Positions 7,366 to 32,000 of a stretch of 32,000 nucleotides of DNA are shown piece by piece. The number at the start of each line of letters is the position of its first letter. Position 1 is the first letter of the stretch. Made by a program: the position numbers and the translations under genes. Origin of the DNA: Candidatus Baldrarchaeum yapensis (GTDB lineage Archaea > Asgardarchaeota > Baldrarchaeia > Baldrarchaeales > Baldrarchaeaceae); assembly GCA_016840465.1 (NCBI GenBank), contig JAEOSH010000015.1:11803-43802 (forward strand), read 5' to 3'. Under the pieces are notes generated by a model, which saw only the letters and a list, made by a program, of their open reading frames with translations, was not told the DNA's origin and ran no database searches.

Positions 7366-8607
7366 ACGGCCATAGCTGTTCGACATAAAACCTCTTCCTT
7401 GAGAAGATATCGGGAATCGCACCGTATATTATGCTCTGAACAACATACTTCCCAACCTCCTTGTGACGCACTACAGGCCTCTCCCCCGTCGCGCAGCGCA
7501 AAAAGTCCATGACATGATATATCTGCATCCCCGTCCTGTAAAGCCACATACCTCCCGACTGCGTTATCAGGCAACCGAGGCAGTAGGGCACAAGTATCTC
7601 CGCACCCGTTTCTCTGGCCTCTCTGAGCCTCTTCAGGATCCCGTATACAAGATCAAAAATGTTGTACCTCCTCACGCCATAACCCAGCCCGCAACACATC
7701 GCACGCATCTTTGCGTTTTTCATCTCCACTATTTCCAGCCCTAGCCCCTCCAGAATCCTTCTCTGCCCCTCCATGAACTCGTCTCCGAGAATCTTCGCAT
7801 GACAGGAATCCTGAACGGTGATGGTCCTCCTTATTTTCCTCTTAACGTCAACTCGCCCCTGTTCCCAGAGCCACTCAGTTAGATAATGCATTTCTGCACC
7901 TATGTCTATCCCGAAACGCGATGGGTATATTTTCGAGAGCATGTCGTAACATCCGGTACATAAGAAGAGAACAGTCCGTACATCGATCTTCCTGAAGAAG
8001 TCTTCAACCATTGTCGCCGCTTTAAAGGCTAGGTCTAGCATTCCCATCCTGTAATACATTTCTCCACAGCATATCTCAGGTGCCGCGATGACCGGAATTC
8101 CATCTAGAAGTTTCGTATAGGTCAAGTACGGAAGGGTCATAAGATTGCAGCCTGCGTATATAACCTCCTTTCCGCGTATTTTCAACCTCCTAGTACGCTC
8201 AACCCATTCCAAAATAGTCCTCCTATCTTCGGGAGGAAGTCTTCGGTGACGACGCTCCTGAAGTTCGGAAACCTGTGTGGAAGCATATATCTGACCCTTA
8301 GCGGCATTCCTCTCCTTCTTATGGATTCAAATTTGTTGTAAAGGATGAGTTCATATGGATTGCATCCCTCAGGACATAAAACATCACAGGTGAAACAACT
8401 AATGCATTTAGAAAGCGTGTAGCTTCTCTCTATCCCCTCTATTAGCAGTTTTATTTCTCCTCTCGCGAGATCTCTTGGTAAGTTTAATACCTGACACTCA
8501 CTAAGACACGTGCCACACAAATTGCACTTGTCGTTCGAGAAGAACCTTAATTTCCAGGTGCTCAACATTACAACACACGATACCAGTTTTTTGAGCATAA
8601 GCCTCAC
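7343..8607 (-). pseudogene. 4Fe-4S dicluster + CCG-domain (HdrD/GlpC-like) oxidoreductase split by one frameshift near 8240
   Basis: 8182-8607 has CNLCGTC and CISCFTCDVLCP. 7343-8212 has GCN, CCG, SCH and CCGLG. One added A at ACC GAA(A)GA CTT joins them as NFRSVVTERLPPEDRRTILEW. Confidence 0.75.
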
Positions 8608-14527: not shown

Positions 14528-15544
14528 ATGGTCGAGGTGCTTTATGAGGGAGAAGGAGAGCTTTTGGGCTGGGAAGATCCAGACGAAATGAGAAAATGGA
14601 TCAGAGAGAATAAGCCGAGGGAGATGGTTGACAAGACGATGGACCTGAAGGAGGCGATTTCGAAGTTCGTGAGAGACGGGTGCTACATAGCGTTTGGCGG
14701 ATTCGGACACATTAGGGTGTCCATGGCAGCCATTTACGAGATAATAAGGCAAAAGAAGCGGAACCTGATAATGGCGGGGAAGACCGCTGTCCATGATGTC
14801 GACATACTGGTGGCAGCTGGATGTGTGAGCAAGGTCGAGGTTGCATATTGTTTCGGGCATGAACTGAGAGGTTTGAGTCCCGCAAGTAGGAGAAAGGTAG
14901 AACATGGTGAGGTCAAGGTTGCAACCGAGTGGAGCAACGCCGGCTTCCAATGGAGGTTCCTAGCGGCGGCGATGGGACTTCCGTTCATACCCACTCGTGT
15001 GATGCTCGGAACCGATACTTTAAGGAAAAGTTCTGCCAAGGTGATAAGAGATCCGTTCAGCGGAAAGCCAATTGCGCTATTGCCGGCGTGTTATCCAGAT
15101 GTTGTGATAATGCACGTCCATAGGTGTGACATTTACGGAAACGCACAGATAGATGGAATCCTTGTGGAAGACTTTGAACTTGCGAGGGCTGCGAGAAGGC
15201 TTATCATCACCACTGAGGAGATCGTAGACCACGAGCTTATAAGGAGAGAACCATGGAAAACTGTGATTCCGTACTTCTTAGTAGATGCTGTTGTCGAGGT
15301 TCCGTGGGGATCACACCCATGTAACATGCCGTACCTGTACTATTTCGATGAGGAGCACATTGCCGAGTGGTTGCGGATGTCGAGGACCGATGAGGGGGTC
15401 GAGCAGTACCTTGAGAAGTACGTTTACAGTGTGGACTCATTTGAGGAGTACCTTGAGAAGATAGGCGGAATTAAGAAGTTGAATTATCTTAAGAAGTTGG
15501 AGCATCTTAGGGCACCATTAGTTGCGCCGTGGGCCCAAGGGTGA
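14528..15544 (+). CDS. Family I CoA-transferase subunit A (glutaconate CoA-transferase-like)
   Basis: AISKFVRDG, AFGGF, AAAMGLPFIP, PDVVIMHVHRCDIYGNAQI, VDAVVEVPWGSHP. Confidence 0.9.
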   Translation: MVEVLYEGEGELLGWEDPDEMRKWIRENKPREMVDKTMDLKEAISKFVRDGCYIAFGGFGHIRVSMAAIYEIIRQKKRNLIMAGKTAVHDVDILVAAGCVSKVEVAYCFGHELRGLSPASRRKVEHGEVKVATEWSNAGFQWRFLAAAMGLPFIPTRVMLGTDTLRKSSAKVIRDPFSGKPIALLPACYPDVVIMHVHRCDIYGNAQIDGILVEDFELARAARRLIITTEEIVDHELIRREPWKTVIPYFLVDAVVEVPWGSHPCNMPYLYYFDEEHIAEWLRMSRTDEGVEQYLEKYVYSVDSFEEYLEKIGGIKKLNYLKKLEHLRAPLVAPWAQG

Positions 15545-25393: not shown

Positions 25394-25909
25394 ATGATTC
25401 CAGTGGGTGATACGGAGTTGGAGACCCTAGTTGTTCCTCATGTCATTGCTGAGCGCATTCGGCGAGAGGCCAAAAAAGCCGGCATGACCTTAGAGGAATA
25501 TCTTATTGAGTTGATTTCGCAGAATTTGGACCCTAAGGATAAAGTTCGAGAATACCTTGAGGCATCTCGAGAACTTCTTGAACAAGCAAATGAGGAATTG
25601 AAAAAGGGCGATATAAGGCAGGCCGCTGAAAAAATATGGGGCGCCACGGCTCTTGCAATTAAGGCTCATGCTTACTCAAGGGAAAGACGAAGACTCACTG
25701 ACCATAGGGAACTCTGGGAATATAAAAATAAGGTTGCCGATGAGCTTGGTGATTGGGTGAGGTCGGTATTTCGACATGCGAGCGCCCTGCATACATGTTT
25801 TTACGAGGGATGGTACACTAAAAGGGACGTTGAAGATGTTTTGACCGATGTAAGGAAACTTATTGAAGCCATATCGAGGGTTATTCTAAAGTCTAACATT
25901 ACTACTTGA
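25394..25909 (+). CDS. PaREP1 family protein with N-terminal RHH-like segment
   Basis: YLEASRELLEQANEELKKGDIRQAAEKIWGA...LHTCFYEG. Confidence 0.85.
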   Translation: MIPVGDTELETLVVPHVIAERIRREAKKAGMTLEEYLIELISQNLDPKDKVREYLEASRELLEQANEELKKGDIRQAAEKIWGATALAIKAHAYSRERRRLTDHRELWEYKNKVADELGDWVRSVFRHASALHTCFYEGWYTKRDVEDVLTDVRKLIEAISRVILKSNITT

Positions 25910-25953: not shown

Positions 25954-27165
25954 TTAACGTCCGATCTCTTTTATTGAAAAGGAAAGATTACTATCCTTTT
26001 CCAGTTCTATTAAGAATTCCGGTAGATCTTCTTCTGACAGAATTACTACGTTACGTGGATACTTCCTGTGAGGCTTTCTTGCCTTCACTTCGACTTTTAG
26101 GTCTCCTGCTATGCAATCTATCTCGTAGTTATTTTTAAAGTAGTAGATTTCCCCGAACCTTCTATAGAGATGCTCTTGTACGACGCTTTCGTAAATTGCC
26201 GATTCCACAAACTTTGCGCCAGACCAGAATGCGAATAGTCTTAAAAGGAGGGGATCTCTGAAGAAGAACTTCTTCTCCTTCCTGTAATAAACCTTATTCG
26301 ACTTGAGGTACGCTATACCTATCATGTACAGGTCTCTGAAGAACTCTAAGTACTCCTGGACTATCTTATACGAATATCCGGAGGTTTCGGAGGCTATTGC
26401 CCTATAACTCATGGCGGAGGGGATTTTGCTTATCAGGGATGCAAGCACCTCCTTTGATATCTCAAGGCTCTTCCTGAACCTGATGAATTCGCCGACAAAT
26501 GCGTTTAAAATGCTATCCAGCGGCAACTCATTTATACTTGACGGGAAGCCGCCAGTTTCGAGGTATTTTTCGAATAATCTCAGCACCTCATCATACTGCA
26601 GTTTGTATCTTCTTATGCCGTGCACCCTGACGTACTGCTTGAAGCTTAATGGTAGTACTTCAATTGTCTTTCCCTTTCCGGTTCTACTTGGGAATAACTC
26701 GATATCTCCTCTTATTTTTAGGCTACTTGAGCCTGTAGCGGTCACAACATCATTTAACAGTTCGCCCGAGTCTATTAACACCTTGACGGCCTTCCACCAT
26801 TCCTTAAGGGATGTAACTTCGTCTAAGAAGATGTATGAGGTGTCTATTCCCTCATTTTTCTTAAATTCCAAATATTCCTCCAGTAATTTCCTAAGCGACA
26901 CAAAATCAGGGAAGATTTCACAGTTGATGTACACAATACTCTCTGGAGGCGTCTTTCTCAACAATTCTGCTATTAACAGTTTTATACCTGTAGTCTTTCC
27001 AACCTGTCTCGGTCCTACGATGAAATTTAGGGAAAAAGGTTCAAGAGATATCTCCTTTGTCCACTCCGGAATCCATTTGTACTTTTGCCGTTCCCATAAT
27101 TGCACATGAATATCGGGACTATCACTCCACCAAGGATTTATTCTTCTCAGGGTTTTTATACCCAT
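25954..27165 (-). CDS. COG1373-type ATPase (AAA_14 + DUF4143)
   Basis: GPRQVGKTT, YIFLDEV, TGSSS, YLETGGFP, FFRDP, YEID...EVK. Confidence 0.88.
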   Translation of the reverse strand: MGIKTLRRINPWWSDSPDIHVQLWERQKYKWIPEWTKEISLEPFSLNFIVGPRQVGKTTGIKLLIAELLRKTPPESIVYINCEIFPDFVSLRKLLEEYLEFKKNEGIDTSYIFLDEVTSLKEWWKAVKVLIDSGELLNDVVTATGSSSLKIRGDIELFPSRTGKGKTIEVLPLSFKQYVRVHGIRRYKLQYDEVLRLFEKYLETGGFPSSINELPLDSILNAFVGEFIRFRKSLEISKEVLASLISKIPSAMSYRAIASETSGYSYKIVQEYLEFFRDLYMIGIAYLKSNKVYYRKEKKFFFRDPLLLRLFAFWSGAKFVESAIYESVVQEHLYRRFGEIYYFKNNYEIDCIAGDLKVEVKARKPHRKYPRNVVILSEEDLPEFLIELEKDSNLSFSIKEIGR

Positions 27166-27339: not shown

Positions 27340-27615
27340 TCAGACATATTTATGACAATTTTTACTATTTTTGCCCCATTTTTTTAATAGCAATTCCACG
27401 ATATGCTTGTAATTGGCGAACTCCAAGACGTAATATCCGAGTTCCTCACGTGATATCTTCTCTAGGACGTATCTGGCTTCTAATATTGCCGCTAGGCCGC
27501 GTAATAAGTTTAAAAGCCGATGGAATATCGCCTCTGTCGTTTCAACTATGACATTTTTTAACAATCCACAATATCTTAATATTAGCGTCAGGATTCGGAG
27601 CAATTGTCTCCACAT
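27340..27615 (-). CDS. Hypothetical protein
   Basis: Fills a gap between genes with amphipathic helical composition; no recognised motif; start uncertain (27615 or 27654). Confidence 0.3.
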   Translation of the reverse strand: MWRQLLRILTLILRYCGLLKNVIVETTEAIFHRLLNLLRGLAAILEARYVLEKISREELGYYVLEFANYKHIVELLLKKWGKNSKNCHKYV

Positions 27616-27787
27616 AGTAACCGAGGGACAGCCGAACGAAGAAGATGAGATCAAACATTGTATCGCGTGGATCCCTTTACCGTTTATTTTATAAAAACCT
27701 ACCTACGGCGGCAATAATTAGTTAACGAAAAATGAGTTGGAGGGTACGAGGAATAACCCGAGTTACAACGTAGATGCAACGGGTATC

Positions 27788-28261
27788 CTAACCGGGTATT
27801 CGAGCCTCGTTTCCTCTTACTTCGACAAGCCCCTTTCTCGCGAAAATCAGGAGGTACGAGCGGACGGCATCTAATGGTATGCCTAAAGTTTTCGATATGT
27901 ACTCAACGCGGACCCACGAGGGGCGGAAGTCTCTCAGCATCCAGTACACCTGATACTTGGGGTCCTCCTCGGTAAGATTGTAGAGTTTATTCAACTCCGT
28001 CTGAAGTTTTAGCACATCCTCGGCGTACGCTGCCGAAAACACCGATTGTTGGAGATTTACCTCCTTGGTGGCCTCTTTTGCCGCCGATGTGATGGCGTTT
28101 ATTAGAGTTTTCACAATTATGTCTATTATGCCGCTTATGAAGGTATCCAACTCTTCCATTATTGCGTCTAGGACCCTCTTTCTCAGCGCTCCCTTTCTTA
28201 GCGACATTCGTCTTAGGATCTCTCTTTCGACCGCGCTTCTAATGGCGTTTGCATTGCTCAT
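27788..28261 (-). CDS. Helical protein with C-terminal winged helix; last gene of the longin/GTPase operon
   Basis: VRVEYISKTLGIPLDAVRSYLLIFARKGLVEV; start overlaps upstream gene by 23 nt. Confidence 0.75.
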   Translation of the reverse strand: MSNANAIRSAVEREILRRMSLRKGALRKRVLDAIMEELDTFISGIIDIIVKTLINAITSAAKEATKEVNLQQSVFSAAYAEDVLKLQTELNKLYNLTEEDPKYQVYWMLRDFRPSWVRVEYISKTLGIPLDAVRSYLLIFARKGLVEVRGNEARIPG

Positions 28262-29150
28262 TCTGCTCTCCTTCCTTTCTTCCCGATGTTAGGGTAACAT
28301 ACCCGTAGCGTAGTGCAAGACCCAGAACGAACTTCACGATGCTTATCGGTATTCTCTCGAGATGTGCTATCTCCCTCACACTCTTAGTACCATCACACCT
28401 ACTTATGATGGACATCCCGACATCCCCATACATGCTCTTTATGAGAACGGGGGTTATCCCGGGGACCCTAACAAGTACGTCCCATTCTTCCACCTTTGCA
28501 TGAGGAAACTCTATGACTCCCTCTTTAACTCCGAGCAACATTAGTGTTACAATATCATTTAACGGCATGCTTGCGATGTTTGCAATGTCCTCCACACTTT
28601 TCTTCCCGTTCACAAGATCCATGATCCTAATGAACTTCATTTTTACATCTCCAGGAACTGGCAAGCGACGGACGACCGCCACGGGATCTGATAGGAGTTT
28701 AGGAACGAACCTTGGATTTATCGGTTGCCCGGGGAACTCCATCATGACGTGAAGTATGAAGCGACGAAATACTGACACGTCCAGGATACACCCCCAGTTC
28801 TTAAGTTCCCGCTCGTACATTCTCTCAAACAATGCTACTATCTTCTTGAGTTTTGCACGTATTTCTTCTGTTTCCTCATCGGCTATTAACGCACCGACAA
28901 CCATTCTCCCTCTCTCTATAACTATTTTGAAGGACCCCCTGTCGATGCTTTTCAGATAGCCGCCCTTTTCTGGCATAAGTTCTCCGGCAAAGGAGTTTAT
29001 TGCTTGCAGGAAGCCGGTAACGAGCAGAGGATCAACCTCCACACTTCCAAATTTATAACTAAATAGGCATTCTCCGCTCTCTTCCAAAAATATGTAGAGA
29101 TTGTGAACTCGAACACTCGTTTTTTTGCCTTCCTGCTTCTCTACACTCAT
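28239..29150 (-). CDS. Longin domain + two winged-helix repeats (NPRL2-like architecture)
   Basis: HNLYIFLEESGECLFSYKF...DPLLVTGFLQAINSFAGEL longin pattern; repeats NGKKSVEDIA and DGTKSVREIA; ATGA overlap with upstream stop. Confidence 0.75.
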   Translation of the reverse strand: MSVEKQEGKKTSVRVHNLYIFLEESGECLFSYKFGSVEVDPLLVTGFLQAINSFAGELMPEKGGYLKSIDRGSFKIVIERGRMVVGALIADEETEEIRAKLKKIVALFERMYERELKNWGCILDVSVFRRFILHVMMEFPGQPINPRFVPKLLSDPVAVVRRLPVPGDVKMKFIRIMDLVNGKKSVEDIANIASMPLNDIVTLMLLGVKEGVIEFPHAKVEEWDVLVRVPGITPVLIKSMYGDVGMSIISRCDGTKSVREIAHLERIPISIVKFVLGLALRYGYVTLTSGRKEGEQNEQCKRH

Positions 29151-29656
29151 GCCCCTCCTCTCTCTTCTATCTCTCTCTTCTTAGCCTCAAGCTCTTTTAT
29201 AAGCTCCCTGTACTCCTCCTCACTTATGAATCCACTTTCTTTCTGGAACTCCAAATCCATGATTTGTCTCTCGAGGTCCATAAGTTCTGTCCTGGGAAGT
29301 TCTACGGATTCTACCTCCTGTGCTTCATGTACAGTCTCTTCTAGGTCGCTAGCCGCTACCATTTCGGGTACTTTGGATTCTACAGATTCTACACTCGTAG
29401 GTTGAGTTGGCTTCATTTGTGGTGTCTCCATTTTGGCCATTTCTTTAGTTTCTAATTTCTTTTCCTCGATTTCCCCTATTCCCTCGAGCATTAATGCTAT
29501 TTTTTCCGGGATCCATTCTCCAAACAGTCTTATCAGCAGATCGACTTTCCGTTCAAGTTTTTCGATCCTCTCGATGAGATCGATGACCCCTGCTTCTTTC
29601 ATTAAAGAGCGTACGAGGGCTTTCAGGGCGTTACCTAACTCGGATGGTTCTTTCAT
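29147..29656 (-). CDS. Coiled-coil protein with acidic linker and C-terminal SHOCT-like motif
   Basis: IERIEKLERKVDLL heptads; DLEFQKESGFISEEEYRELIKEL; RBS GGGGTGA before ATG 29656. Confidence 0.7.
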   Translation of the reverse strand: MKEPSELGNALKALVRSLMKEAGVIDLIERIEKLERKVDLLIRLFGEWIPEKIALMLEGIGEIEEKKLETKEMAKMETPQMKPTQPTSVESVESKVPEMVAASDLEETVHEAQEVESVELPRTELMDLERQIMDLEFQKESGFISEEEYRELIKELEAKKREIEERGGA

Positions 29657-29672
29657 CACATCACCCCATTCA

Positions 29673-30503
29673 TCAACTGAGTAATGCACTTTTTATCACA
29701 TCCATAATTTTAGATCGGTAAGCAGGGTCAATCGCAACACATCCATAAGTTTTTATTCCGAGTGTTTGCTCGATCACATCCGCGGGAAGCGATTTAGGCA
29801 GGTCCTGCTTATTTGCGATGGCGAGGATTACGGAGTACCTTGCAGGGTCCCTAATCATCGGCATTATTTGGGATTTTGTACGTTCTACATTATCAGGTGT
29901 GGAATCGGTCACTACAACCACCACGTCGCTCCCCCTTATCAGTATGTCCCATATTGGCATAAATCTCTCCTGACCACCCACGGTGAACAGTATAACTCTG
30001 TAGGGTCCAATAGGGAGTGTCATAATGGCCCGCTCCCCGAACATGGTGGGCTCGTACCTTAGCGGTATACGTTCGTGCCTTAGCAATCTGAGTAGAGTTG
30101 TCTTACCCACCCCTCCGAAGCCGACGAAGCACACTTTTGCCGGAATTGTCGCAATTACTCTTCTGCTGAGGATGCTGAGGTGCCTTTCTTCCTCGACCGA
30201 GAGAGGACTATTAAATCTCTGGGATGCGACATCTCTGAGGTACTCGGTGAGCGCACCTTCCACCTCCTCCCTATCGCACGATCTGTTGTTAATCATCACG
30301 ACAATGTAGTCTCCGAGCGTCCCGTACGATATTCTATATCTGAAGATCTCCGAGTGGTCGATCACGCCGTCGTCCATTGCCCTTGCAACAGGAAGTATCA
30401 ACTGTGAGATCTCATCGAAGTTTATCCTGCCGATATTTGCGTACTTTCTATGAAATATAAGGCGAAGATCGTCCTTCTTGTAGATGTATATCTGTCTTAT
30501 CAA
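29673..30503 (-). CDS. Longin-like domain fused to Ras-superfamily (Arf/Rag-like) small GTPase
   Basis: G1 GFGGVGKT, G2 PTM, G3 FTVGGQ (no Asp), G4 NKQD, G5-like CVA; N-terminal IRQIYIY...LIFHRKY longin-like. Confidence 0.88.
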   Translation of the reverse strand: MIRQIYIYKKDDLRLIFHRKYANIGRINFDEISQLILPVARAMDDGVIDHSEIFRYRISYGTLGDYIVVMINNRSCDREEVEGALTEYLRDVASQRFNSPLSVEEERHLSILSRRVIATIPAKVCFVGFGGVGKTTLLRLLRHERIPLRYEPTMFGERAIMTLPIGPYRVILFTVGGQERFMPIWDILIRGSDVVVVVTDSTPDNVERTKSQIMPMIRDPARYSVILAIANKQDLPKSLPADVIEQTLGIKTYGCVAIDPAYRSKIMDVIKSALLS

Positions 30504-31555
30504 CGCTTTTCCCTCATCATCTCCATGTATGACTCCTTGAGCAACATTAGATATTGGCGGAGCCCTTCATCCCATGACTCGACGTTACCGTACAGCTCTA
30601 TCATTTTTCTAAGCTGATACTCCGGGAAGAATATCAGCAACAGCGGTTCGCTCAGTGGGAAAACTTCCTCGCCTCTCATTTCTATAAACCTGTTACGCTC
30701 TAACCACCCAAGTATGTCGAACAGTTCTCCACTCGGTATGTCAACCTCGTCTCTTATCTCCTCTATCGAGACCACACCCTTTTTCCTGATGCACGACAAC
30801 ACCCGATACGTGTCCGGATCGGTGAGGGCTCTCGCCAGCACCATTGCTTCCCTGCTATCGGGCTTATACTTTGAGAACAGTGCTATTACGGAGGATCTAA
30901 TATCTCGTGGCACTTTTTTCGTTCTCGGTGGAACTCTTAATATTTCACAATCCCTCACAAGAAATGCCACTTCACTTGAGGCGCCCTCTATCCATCGTGT
31001 GACCACGAGATCCAGTTTTACTAGAGGAGAGAGTACTGACCTCATATCCACGGTTCTCAAACCGAATGCGTGTTTTATTTCTCCCGATAGTTGGTCAAGC
31101 GTCATTAGGCCTTTTTCTCTCAACTTTTGCAACACAAAGACTTTCATAGGATCCAGGAACAGACGAGCAACCTTTTGCTCGATGCTCATGTGTGGATACT
31201 GCTCTATCAGTTTGAAAAGGTCTTCAAGATGCTCGAGGTATTCACCACCCTCTATCTGGTCGAATATCCTTGAGGCAACCTCCACAACCACTTCCTCATA
31301 ATCTTCGGGATCTTCAGCCTCCGAGAGGAGGATCGCAACGTACCTGTTTATCTCTATACCTCCAAAATAGCTGATAATCCTGAGGTCGTCGACCCTTATG
31401 GAGATGAGATTCGCCTCCCGCGCCTCACCCAGCACATGACTTCCGTAAATCTTCATCGTTAGATCAGGATCAACTCTGAGGGATGGAGGGAAACGGGCTT
31501 CGAGAACCGTCCCCCTCCGGTTATCCCATTTCACTACGATCATTCCGATCGGCAA
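30500..31555 (-). CDS. uDENN/longin-like domain + two winged helices
   Basis: MIVVKWDNRRGTVLEARFP fits the uDENN opening pattern hhhh[FW]DxxxGxxhxxxYP; two wHTH-like segments; TTGA overlap with GTPase start. Confidence 0.7.
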   Translation of the reverse strand: MPIGMIVVKWDNRRGTVLEARFPPSLRVDPDLTMKIYGSHVLGEAREANLISIRVDDLRIISYFGGIEINRYVAILLSEAEDPEDYEEVVVEVASRIFDQIEGGEYLEHLEDLFKLIEQYPHMSIEQKVARLFLDPMKVFVLQKLREKGLMTLDQLSGEIKHAFGLRTVDMRSVLSPLVKLDLVVTRWIEGASSEVAFLVRDCEILRVPPRTKKVPRDIRSSVIALFSKYKPDSREAMVLARALTDPDTYRVLSCIRKKGVVSIEEIRDEVDIPSGELFDILGWLERNRFIEMRGEEVFPLSEPLLLIFFPEYQLRKMIELYGNVESWDEGLRQYLMLLKESYMEMMREKR

Positions 31556-31648
31556 GTTTATCCTCTCTAGATGCGATCTCCGGAGTTTTTACCGTTCAAA
31601 TAAAATTTTTTGTTATCCTAACGTTTATCGCGATCCTTATTTAAAAAT

Positions 31649-31660
31649 TTTTATATAAAA
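31649..31660. promoter_or_regulatory. Palindromic TATA box in a divergent AT-rich intergenic region
   Basis: TTTTATATAAAA between divergent starts at 31555 (-) and 31861 (+). Confidence 0.4.
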
Positions 31661-31860
31661 CCGAAATCTCGCAAATGATGTTTTTTAATGCATATATACC
31701 GAAATTGACGATCTTTTCCGATGGGGAGATCTTGGCGCAATCTGGCGACAAAAAACTGAAAAATGTCCAATTGCAAATAAATCTTTCATTGCTTATTTTT
31801 GCATGGAAAGATTTAAATAGAGGGTTTCTGGAAGAATACGAAATTATCGACCGAATTTAA

Positions 31861-32000
31861 ATGGAGAGCATAGTAATGATTTCGAAAAATTGGGCAAAAC
31901 GCTTTTTGACGATTTTTATACTCCTATTAATAGTCGTTGCCGCCATGCTCGTCGTTTTCGTGACATTCACCGGTGTCCCTTCTGCAATGGCAAGTAATGG
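31861..32000 (+). CDS. Secreted or membrane protein, N-terminus only (runs off window)
   Basis: MESIVMISKNWAKRFLTIFILLLIVVAAMLVVFVTFTGVPSAMAS: basic n-region, long hydrophobic h-region, AMA-S cleavage-like site. Confidence 0.6.
   Translation, partial: MESIVMISKNWAKRFLTIFILLLIVVAAMLVVFVTFTGVPSAMASN

Follow-up and report, generated by a model that had tools for sequence, protein, structure and literature searches.

What kind of small-GTPase system do the five closely packed genes g1 to g5 of the Asgard archaeon Candidatus Baldrarchaeum yapensis encode? These genes lie at positions 27788-31555 of the 32,000-nucleotide stretch of DNA that we analyzed (the window, G000:C76:11803-43802, from contig JAEOSH010000015.1), and the source genome, G000, is 2.27 Mb long and 96% complete. 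The original prediction, made from the letters alone, proposed a GATOR1/Rag-like or DENN/Rab-like GTPase signalling module. Our evidence tips the balance toward a receptor-coupled small-GTPase switch of Asgard type, because g1 and g4 are of the NPRL2/3 type, the g1 longin has a hairpin spaced as in C9orf72, and the longins of g2 and g4 share ancestry. In their predicted structures, g1 and g4 are two proteins unrelated in sequence that have the NPRL3/NPRL2 layout, and the gene for a surface protein accompanies the module in all lineages examined.

The NPRL2-like layout was found in g4 (28239-29150, minus strand, 303 amino acids). Relatives collected by whole-genome searches gave a 50-row alignment for AlphaFold2, and the resulting model (predicted local distance difference test, pLDDT, 87.0) consists of a longin domain (residues 15-122) followed by two winged helices (~125-228 and 235-287). 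This model and its Foldseek matches bear out the longin and tandem winged helices first proposed for this gene. The top 13 PDB matches by Foldseek were exclusively NPRL2, NPRL3 and Npr2 chains (1.7e-7 to 6.6e-5). Among AlphaFold database (AFDB) models, NPRL2 of fly, fission yeast and human matched nearly the whole protein (4e-9 to 1e-8), and the best NPRL2 match (4.3e-9) aligned g4 residues 1-287 with residues 26-358. In a PDB-wide comparison with VIA, only Npr2 (8adl_S, 256 residues, Z 10.8) and NPRL3 (242 residues, Z 10.6) spanned the longin and both winged helices, whereas generic longins aligned to the first domain alone (Z 11-13.4). HTH_NPRL3 (PF24064) matches 8 of the 50 g4-family members (best E 9.6e-9), though not the window g4.

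A search of 151 genomes at E<=1e-30 recovered full-length g4-type proteins in 69 of them, often in tandem pairs. Within one Asgard family (f7; L055 and L059-L081), many genomes have two tandem g4-type genes of ~275 and ~290 amino acids, which look like a paralogous pair in the style of NPRL2/3. The source genome also carries a second g4-type gene (L018, G000:C89:17000-33000, open reading frame (ORF) 7448-8434; 328 amino acids, 29% identical), with a small GTPase gene (14598-15182) ~6 kb downstream of it; these two may possibly represent a paralogous module.

The second NPRL-like protein is g1 (30500-31555, minus strand, 351 amino acids), whose family comprises 229 representative relatives from a full HMMER search. 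A 74-row alignment yielded an AlphaFold2 model (pLDDT 95.4; predicted template modelling score, pTM, 0.89) with a longin domain at residues 4-122 (strands 4-11 and 15-22, helix 30-41, strands 49-77 and helices 83-122), winged helices at 125-208 and 234-309, and helices at the C-terminus. The order of elements in the first domain is beta-beta-alpha-beta-beta-beta-alpha-alpha in the models of both g1 (4-122) and g4 (15-122). Two winged helices had been foreseen for g1 and are present, but the domain that precedes them is a plain longin fold and not uDENN-like, as had been proposed. The top PDB matches of g1 were the NPRL3 and NPRL2 chains of GATOR1/SEAC (Foldseek, 1e-5 to 1e-3), with ESCRT-II, Fuzzy/Inturned, an Asgard longin, FLCN-FNIP and C9orf72 lower down; among Swiss-Prot AFDB models, NPRL3 (1.3e-5) ranked first and NPRL2 second, followed by DENND10/11 and Vps36. 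VIA-align placed a Lokiarchaeal longin (Z 12.6), NPRL2 (Z 12.1, over residues 1-296) and DENND1 (Z 11.3) close to g1. Thus, the predicted likeness to GATOR1 stands, since Foldseek ranks NPRL2/NPRL3 as the top full-length matches for the predicted structures of both g1 and g4. The DENN/Rab reading fails because no cDENN or dDENN domain follows the longin: the g1 model has only the two winged helices and terminal helices beyond residue 122, no DENN family of Pfam matches, and DENND1 aligns over residues 1-123 only (VIA).

Within its longin, g1 carries a conserved beta1-beta2 hairpin hallmark, W10-D11-x3-G15 ... P23. In the 74-member alignment, W10 is kept in 67 sequences, D11 in 59, G15 in 71 and P23 in 73, and position 13 is Arg or Lys in 53. 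In C9orf72, W33-D34 and G38-P39 are essential or conserved in CSW (C9orf72-SMCR8-WDR41), a complex that acts as a GTPase-activating protein (GAP) for Arf (PMC12290439). The W-D-x3-G spacing of the g1 family matches W33-D34 and G38 of C9orf72, the partner GTPase is Arf-like in both cases (Arf1/Arf6 for the longin GAP CSW), and the CSW chains 7mge_C and 6lt0_C are among the structural matches of g1. CSW differs in that its longin is followed by a DENN domain, which g1 lacks, and in having WDR41, of which we saw no counterpart here. The g1 family is widespread: of 151 genomes sampled from the phylum, 114 contain it, and a genome may have as many as 11 copies.

The GTPase of the module is g2 (29673-30503, minus strand, 276 amino acids), which had been described as a longin fused to a small GTPase. 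Both parts were borne out: residues 119-252 match Pfam Arf (5.8e-16) as well as Roc and Ras, with Arf1 as the nearest solved proteins (3.8e-12), and residues ~1-112 are homologous to the longin of the g4 family (hhalign 97%, E 5e-11). The label "Rag" did not survive, as g2 is Arf-like by sequence and has no match to Gtr1_RagA at E<=1, and a genome search with PF04670 misses it. The G1 (GFGGVGKT) and G4 (NKQD) motifs are intact and the catalytic Gln178 is kept. In place of the N-terminal amphipathic helix of the Arf family, g2 starts with a 112-amino-acid longin; this N-terminus has no transmembrane (TM) anchor and no usable match in the protein atlas. Those relatives reached through the g2 family that carry a name all belong to the Asgards (Promethearchaeota).

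The original prediction also held that a complete GTPase switch is encoded in one transcript. This overlooked a conserved sixth component, a single-pass surface protein encoded divergently from g1. Its gene begins on the plus strand at 31861-32000, at the end of the window, and continues on contig C100 (L182:5-3427). The 46 N-terminal residues are encoded identically at the end of C76 (31861-32000) and at the start of C100 (L182 1-140), which shows that these contigs adjoin and that the gene is complete across the joint. The protein has 1140 amino acids, with predicted TM segments at the N-terminus (16-34) and at 1049-1067, an ectodomain of ~1000 amino acids with PA14, CarboxypepD_reg and Ig-like domains (Pfam), and a cytoplasmic tail of ~75 amino acids that carries a conserved motif. 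Every related lineage examined has a homologue within or next to the module (L019, L021, L020, L104, L105, G004 and L084): it lies between g3 and g4 in L019, L021 and G004, whereas in L020 it is upstream of g2, and in Atabeyarchaeum and LC30 upstream of g1. Elsewhere among the Asgards, proteins of 588-2548 amino acids carry the g1 module fused at their C-terminus, ~100 residues past a TM helix, and the juxtamembrane motif of the window protein's tail recurs in the linker. Because g1 is fused elsewhere through a homologous tail, this Rosetta-stone evidence suggests cooperation between g1 and the receptor tail. Giant g1 fusions of 1330-2548 amino acids (P0026, P0039, P0043, P0046, P0048, P0050 and P0057) have both the TM helix and the conserved juxtamembrane linker.

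Conserved synteny had not been part of the sequence-only description but was a way to check it, and the outcome was mixed: linkage of g1 and g2 extends across Asgard classes, while the five-gene order is found only in Baldrarchaeia-type relatives. Independent contigs preserve the order g1-g2-g3-...-g4-g5 at identities of 42-56%, so the arrangement is not due to chance. Outside the window, only Baldrarchaeia-type contigs were found to have the complete set of g1 to g5, and in these relatives the receptor gene sits between g3 and g4. Over a wider range, g1 is followed directly by a longin-GTPase gene in Baldr-, Frey-, Jord- and Atabeyarchaeia and in LC30, a convergent g1 flanks a g2-type gene in Hermod- and Hodarchaeia, and g5-like genes follow the module in Atabeyarchaeia. 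Among 80 g2-centred loci, 20 have g1 within 9 kb. A Baldrarchaeota relative (G004:C18; L084/L106) carries a second, rearranged module, in which a gene for a 288-amino-acid GTPase is followed by a g1-type gene of 398 amino acids; a homologue of the large surface protein lies near it.

If the locus is a receptor-coupled switch, the longin domains of g1, g4 and g2 would pair into a platform on which the G domain of g2 docks, an arrangement that we model on GATOR1-Rag, C9orf72-SMCR8-Arf and MglB-MglA. In such a platform g4 would pair with the g2 longin, and g1, with its WD..G hairpin and mostly basic position 13, would be the likeliest GAP-like catalytic or regulatory subunit as well as the adaptor to the receptor tail. 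The winged helices would mediate protein-protein contacts, like those of NPRL2/3 and ESCRT-II, and g3 (a coiled coil) and g5 (helical with a winged helix) would act as scaffolds or outputs. In this way, the nucleotide state of g2 would be set by the state of the surface protein. A prediction of the g1-g2-g4 complex scored 0.01 against a mark of 0.32, using unpaired alignments and three full-length chains unlike those of the calibration set, and so speaks neither for nor against binding.

Several results weigh against this reading. For the longin domain taken alone, NPRL proteins are tied with the longins of SNARE, AP, TRAPP, Mon1-Ccz1, SRX and DENN proteins (VIA); the longins of g1 and g4 align with solved longins, NPRL2/3 included, at Z 11-13.4 and a root-mean-square deviation of ~3 Å over ~120 residues. 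Since the longin alone ties with so many classes, the NPRL assignment rests on domain order. At the sequence level, the window g4 stays below membership of Pfam NPR2 (PF06218; 14.8 bits, cut-off 27.5), and profile searches against Npr2/NPRL2 of the PDB reached only E 0.16-0.44. We saw no conserved Arg at a place like that of NPRL2 R78 in the g4 family, judged without residue-level superposition; the invariant Arg of the family is R98 in helix alpha2, and R80 and R82, near the beta4-beta5 loop, are not conserved. The comparison of this loop with the site of NPRL2 Arg78 is a lead only, which we did not use as evidence. The relation between g1 and g4 is also unlike that between NPRL2 and NPRL3: hhalign showed no homology (Prob 2%), and the idea that the two are recent paralogues in the NPRL2/NPRL3 manner was therefore dropped. 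In the g1 hairpin, only 14 of 74 family members have Pro after G15, as C9orf72 has after its Gly, and the window g1 has Thr (GT, not GP). The G3 motif of g2 reads FTVGGQ, with Thr at residue 174 replacing the usual Asp (that of WDxGGQ in the Arf family), although this change is confined in the alignment to the window's clade, and relatives from Frey- and Jordarchaeia and L020 keep the Asp (WDLAGQERF / FDFAGQERF). Finally, g4, g3 and g5 lie inside the operon in close relatives only.

Could the locus instead be a conservon- or MglAB-type module, its likeness to NPRL2/3 reflecting shared ancient parts and not a forerunner of GATOR1? Under this assignment, which we consider unlikely, g4 would combine a roadblock-like part (CvnB/MglB) with DUF742 (CvnC), g2 would be the CvnD/MglA-like GTPase, and the membrane protein would replace the sensor kinase CvnA. 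The locus does share with conservons (CvnA-D) and MglA/MglB a protein of the roadblock/longin superfamily, a small GTPase and a membrane component that belongs to the cluster. Moreover, the second winged helix of g4 (residues 246-293) comes close to the DUF742 threshold (26.6 bits, cut-off 27), 6 of the 50 g4-family members match DUF742, and the longin models align to MglB and to Streptomyces roadblock proteins (VIA, Z 8.8-10.8). The Thr in the G3 motif of g2, which may resemble MglA, also counts in favor of the assignment. However, the topology of g1 and g4 is that of a longin (beta-beta-alpha first) and not of a roadblock domain, and a single chain joins longin and winged helices, just as in NPRL2/3. 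Arf1 rather than MglA is the closest relative of the GTPase, the G3 Asp is present outside the window's clade, and neither the operon nor its flanks encode a histidine kinase. The full-length alignment to NPRL2/3 also beats all others.

A second alternative is that the five winged helices (two in g1, two in g4 and one in g5) bind DNA, making the locus a GTPase-gated transcription unit that perhaps regulates its own divergent promoter, which it shares with the gene for the surface protein. Taken singly, the winged helices do match regulators of the ArsR/MarR/TrmB/AsnC type (VIA, Z 9.3 to 2oqg_C), members of the families match Pfam TrmB, HTH_24 and HTH_5, P0015 is labelled an ArsR-family regulator by one source, the C-terminus of g5 resembles MarR/IclR, and a divergent intergenic region of 305 bp is present. 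The best full-length matches, however, are to winged helices of scaffold proteins (NPRL2/3, ESCRT-II Vps36, FAM91A1 and DENND10/11) and not to DNA-bound regulators, and the membrane-tethered g1 module of other Asgards ill suits a diffusible DNA-binding regulator. No repeated operator turned up, although no search for one was made. We hold this explanation to be rather improbable, below the conservon-type assignment. Least probable by far is an SRX-SRbeta-like targeting pair for insertion or secretion of the neighboring giant surface protein: SRbeta belongs to the Arf-like GTPases, SRX domains of SRalpha align with the g4 longin (VIA; 6frk_y, Z 11.5; 5ck3_A, Z 11.1) and the neighbor is a secreted or membrane protein, but these Z values are tied with those of a dozen other longin classes, g2 has no N-terminal TM anchor, and the conserved cytoplasmic tail and the g1 fusion behind a TM helix suggest signalling or anchoring after insertion rather than targeting.

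The receptor-coupled switch would include two smaller proteins, g3 and g5. From its ATG, g3 (29147-29656, minus strand) encodes an acidic coiled coil of 169 amino acids, and an alternative GTG start lies at 29689; its orthologues are 41% and 46% identical. The coiled coil that had been predicted for g3 was found, while the SHOCT likeness remained below threshold: the conserved C-terminal motif of the orthologues scores 20-23.9 bits against SHOCT (PF09851; best 3.3e-5, cut-off 27), and the window g3 has no match to it at E<=1. A more distant g3 relative matches the CdvA coiled coil just below threshold (5.2e-6). The 157-amino-acid product of g5 (27788-28261, minus strand) has N-terminal helices, and the winged helix claimed for it is a putative one at the C-terminus (about residues 84-157), to which weak leads point. 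Orthologues of g5 that occur with the module reach into Atabeyarchaeia, with 42% identity to the 239-amino-acid gene of L104.

The ORF list and translations confirmed five co-directional minus-strand genes with the coordinates and junctions of the original prediction. The g1/g2 junction is a 4-nt TTGA overlap, g2 and g3 are separated by 16 nt (given the ATG start of g3), g3 and g4 overlap by ATGA, and g4 and g5 overlap by 23 nt. Although TTG is an unusual start, it appears correct for both g1 and g2 because it reproduces the conserved N-termini of the families ("MPxG....WD" for g1, "MIRQIY" for g2). A Shine-Dalgarno-like GAGAGGA (31567-31561, minus strand) precedes the TTG of g1, and GGGGTGAT, likewise Shine-Dalgarno-like and read from the translation frame, lies ahead of the g3 ATG on the same strand. 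Between g1 and the receptor-like gene lies an AT-rich divergent intergenic region of 305 bp (31556-31860), a candidate shared promoter region; reading its sequence upstream of g1 on the minus strand revealed a TATA-like TTTATATA (31659-31652) and an A/T box (31610-31598), which are consistent with a promoter role. Beyond the g5 stop on the minus strand (27683-27732), T5 runs (27732-27728 and 27697-27693) and a TATA-like TTTTTATAAAATAAA likely mark the end of the operon and the promoter of the next ORF. Given the promoter-like boxes upstream, and the T5 runs and new TATA-like box downstream, g1 to g5 look like a single transcription unit.

Two further genes were considered as module members and rejected. 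No similarity could be detected between a 104-amino-acid ORF (27340-27654) and the 102-amino-acid gene that follows g5 in relatives, and an AAA_14/DUF4143 gene (25954-27165, minus strand, 1.7e-24) encodes a common archaeal ATPase. Just downstream of the operon there is also a PaREP1/HEPN-family gene (25394-25909, plus strand, 3.6e-26), which appears unrelated to it.

How does the locus compare with the system that it most resembles in domain layout? Like the NPRL2-NPRL3 pair of GATOR1/SEACIT (Npr2-Npr3, a GAP for RagA/Gtr1), g1 and g4 are two proteins that combine a longin with winged helices; a small GTPase is encoded alongside them, and the g4 family includes members that match HTH_NPRL3. 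The client of GATOR1, however, is a Rag GTPase with a C-terminal roadblock domain, whereas g2 is Arf-like with an N-terminal longin, and GATOR1 is coupled to the lysosomal Ragulator rather than to a receptor-like surface protein. The DEPDC5/Iml1 family (PF12257) had no match in G000 or in any control genome.

Proteins of these kinds have been described singly in Asgards. NPRL2-like proteins (a longin with an NPRL2-type C-terminal part) and longin-GTPase fusions were already reported (Liu et al. 2021, bioRxiv 10.1101/2020.10.19.343400, Fig. 5c), as were longin- and roadblock-fused Rag- and Arf-like GTPases (Tran et al. 2024, PMC10933270). In MK-D1, GTPase genes generally lie outside operons with roadblock or longin genes, and Asgard regulators are hard to match to their GTPases because they are rarely in operons (Tran et al. 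2024, PMC10933270). We found no description of a locus of the present type in literature that joins Asgard archaea and GATOR1, one Myxococcus study aside. What is new is that a single locus unites the two NPRL-like families with the fused GTPase, a receptor gene and two small partners.

Asgard genomes encode dozens of small GTPases together with longin and roadblock proteins. The locus provides a matched set in less than 5 kb: two NPRL2/3-like proteins, a longin-fused GTPase, two partners and a candidate receptor. All of these proteins except the receptor are of soluble size, and g1 and g4 are modelled at high confidence. The set allows two questions to be tested, namely whether longin GAP or guanine nucleotide exchange factor chemistry, including that of the C9orf72-type WD hairpin, predates eukaryotes, and what input is sensed. 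It is possible, though on the whole doubtful, that the ancestor of the eukaryotic longin GAP complexes (GATOR1, CSW and FLCN-FNIP) has a living relative in this locus, with a heteromeric NPRL-like longin platform that would control an Arf-like GTPase directly in response to a single-pass receptor at the cell surface. If true, it would represent a prokaryotic receptor-to-small-GTPase pathway older than eukaryotic endomembranes.

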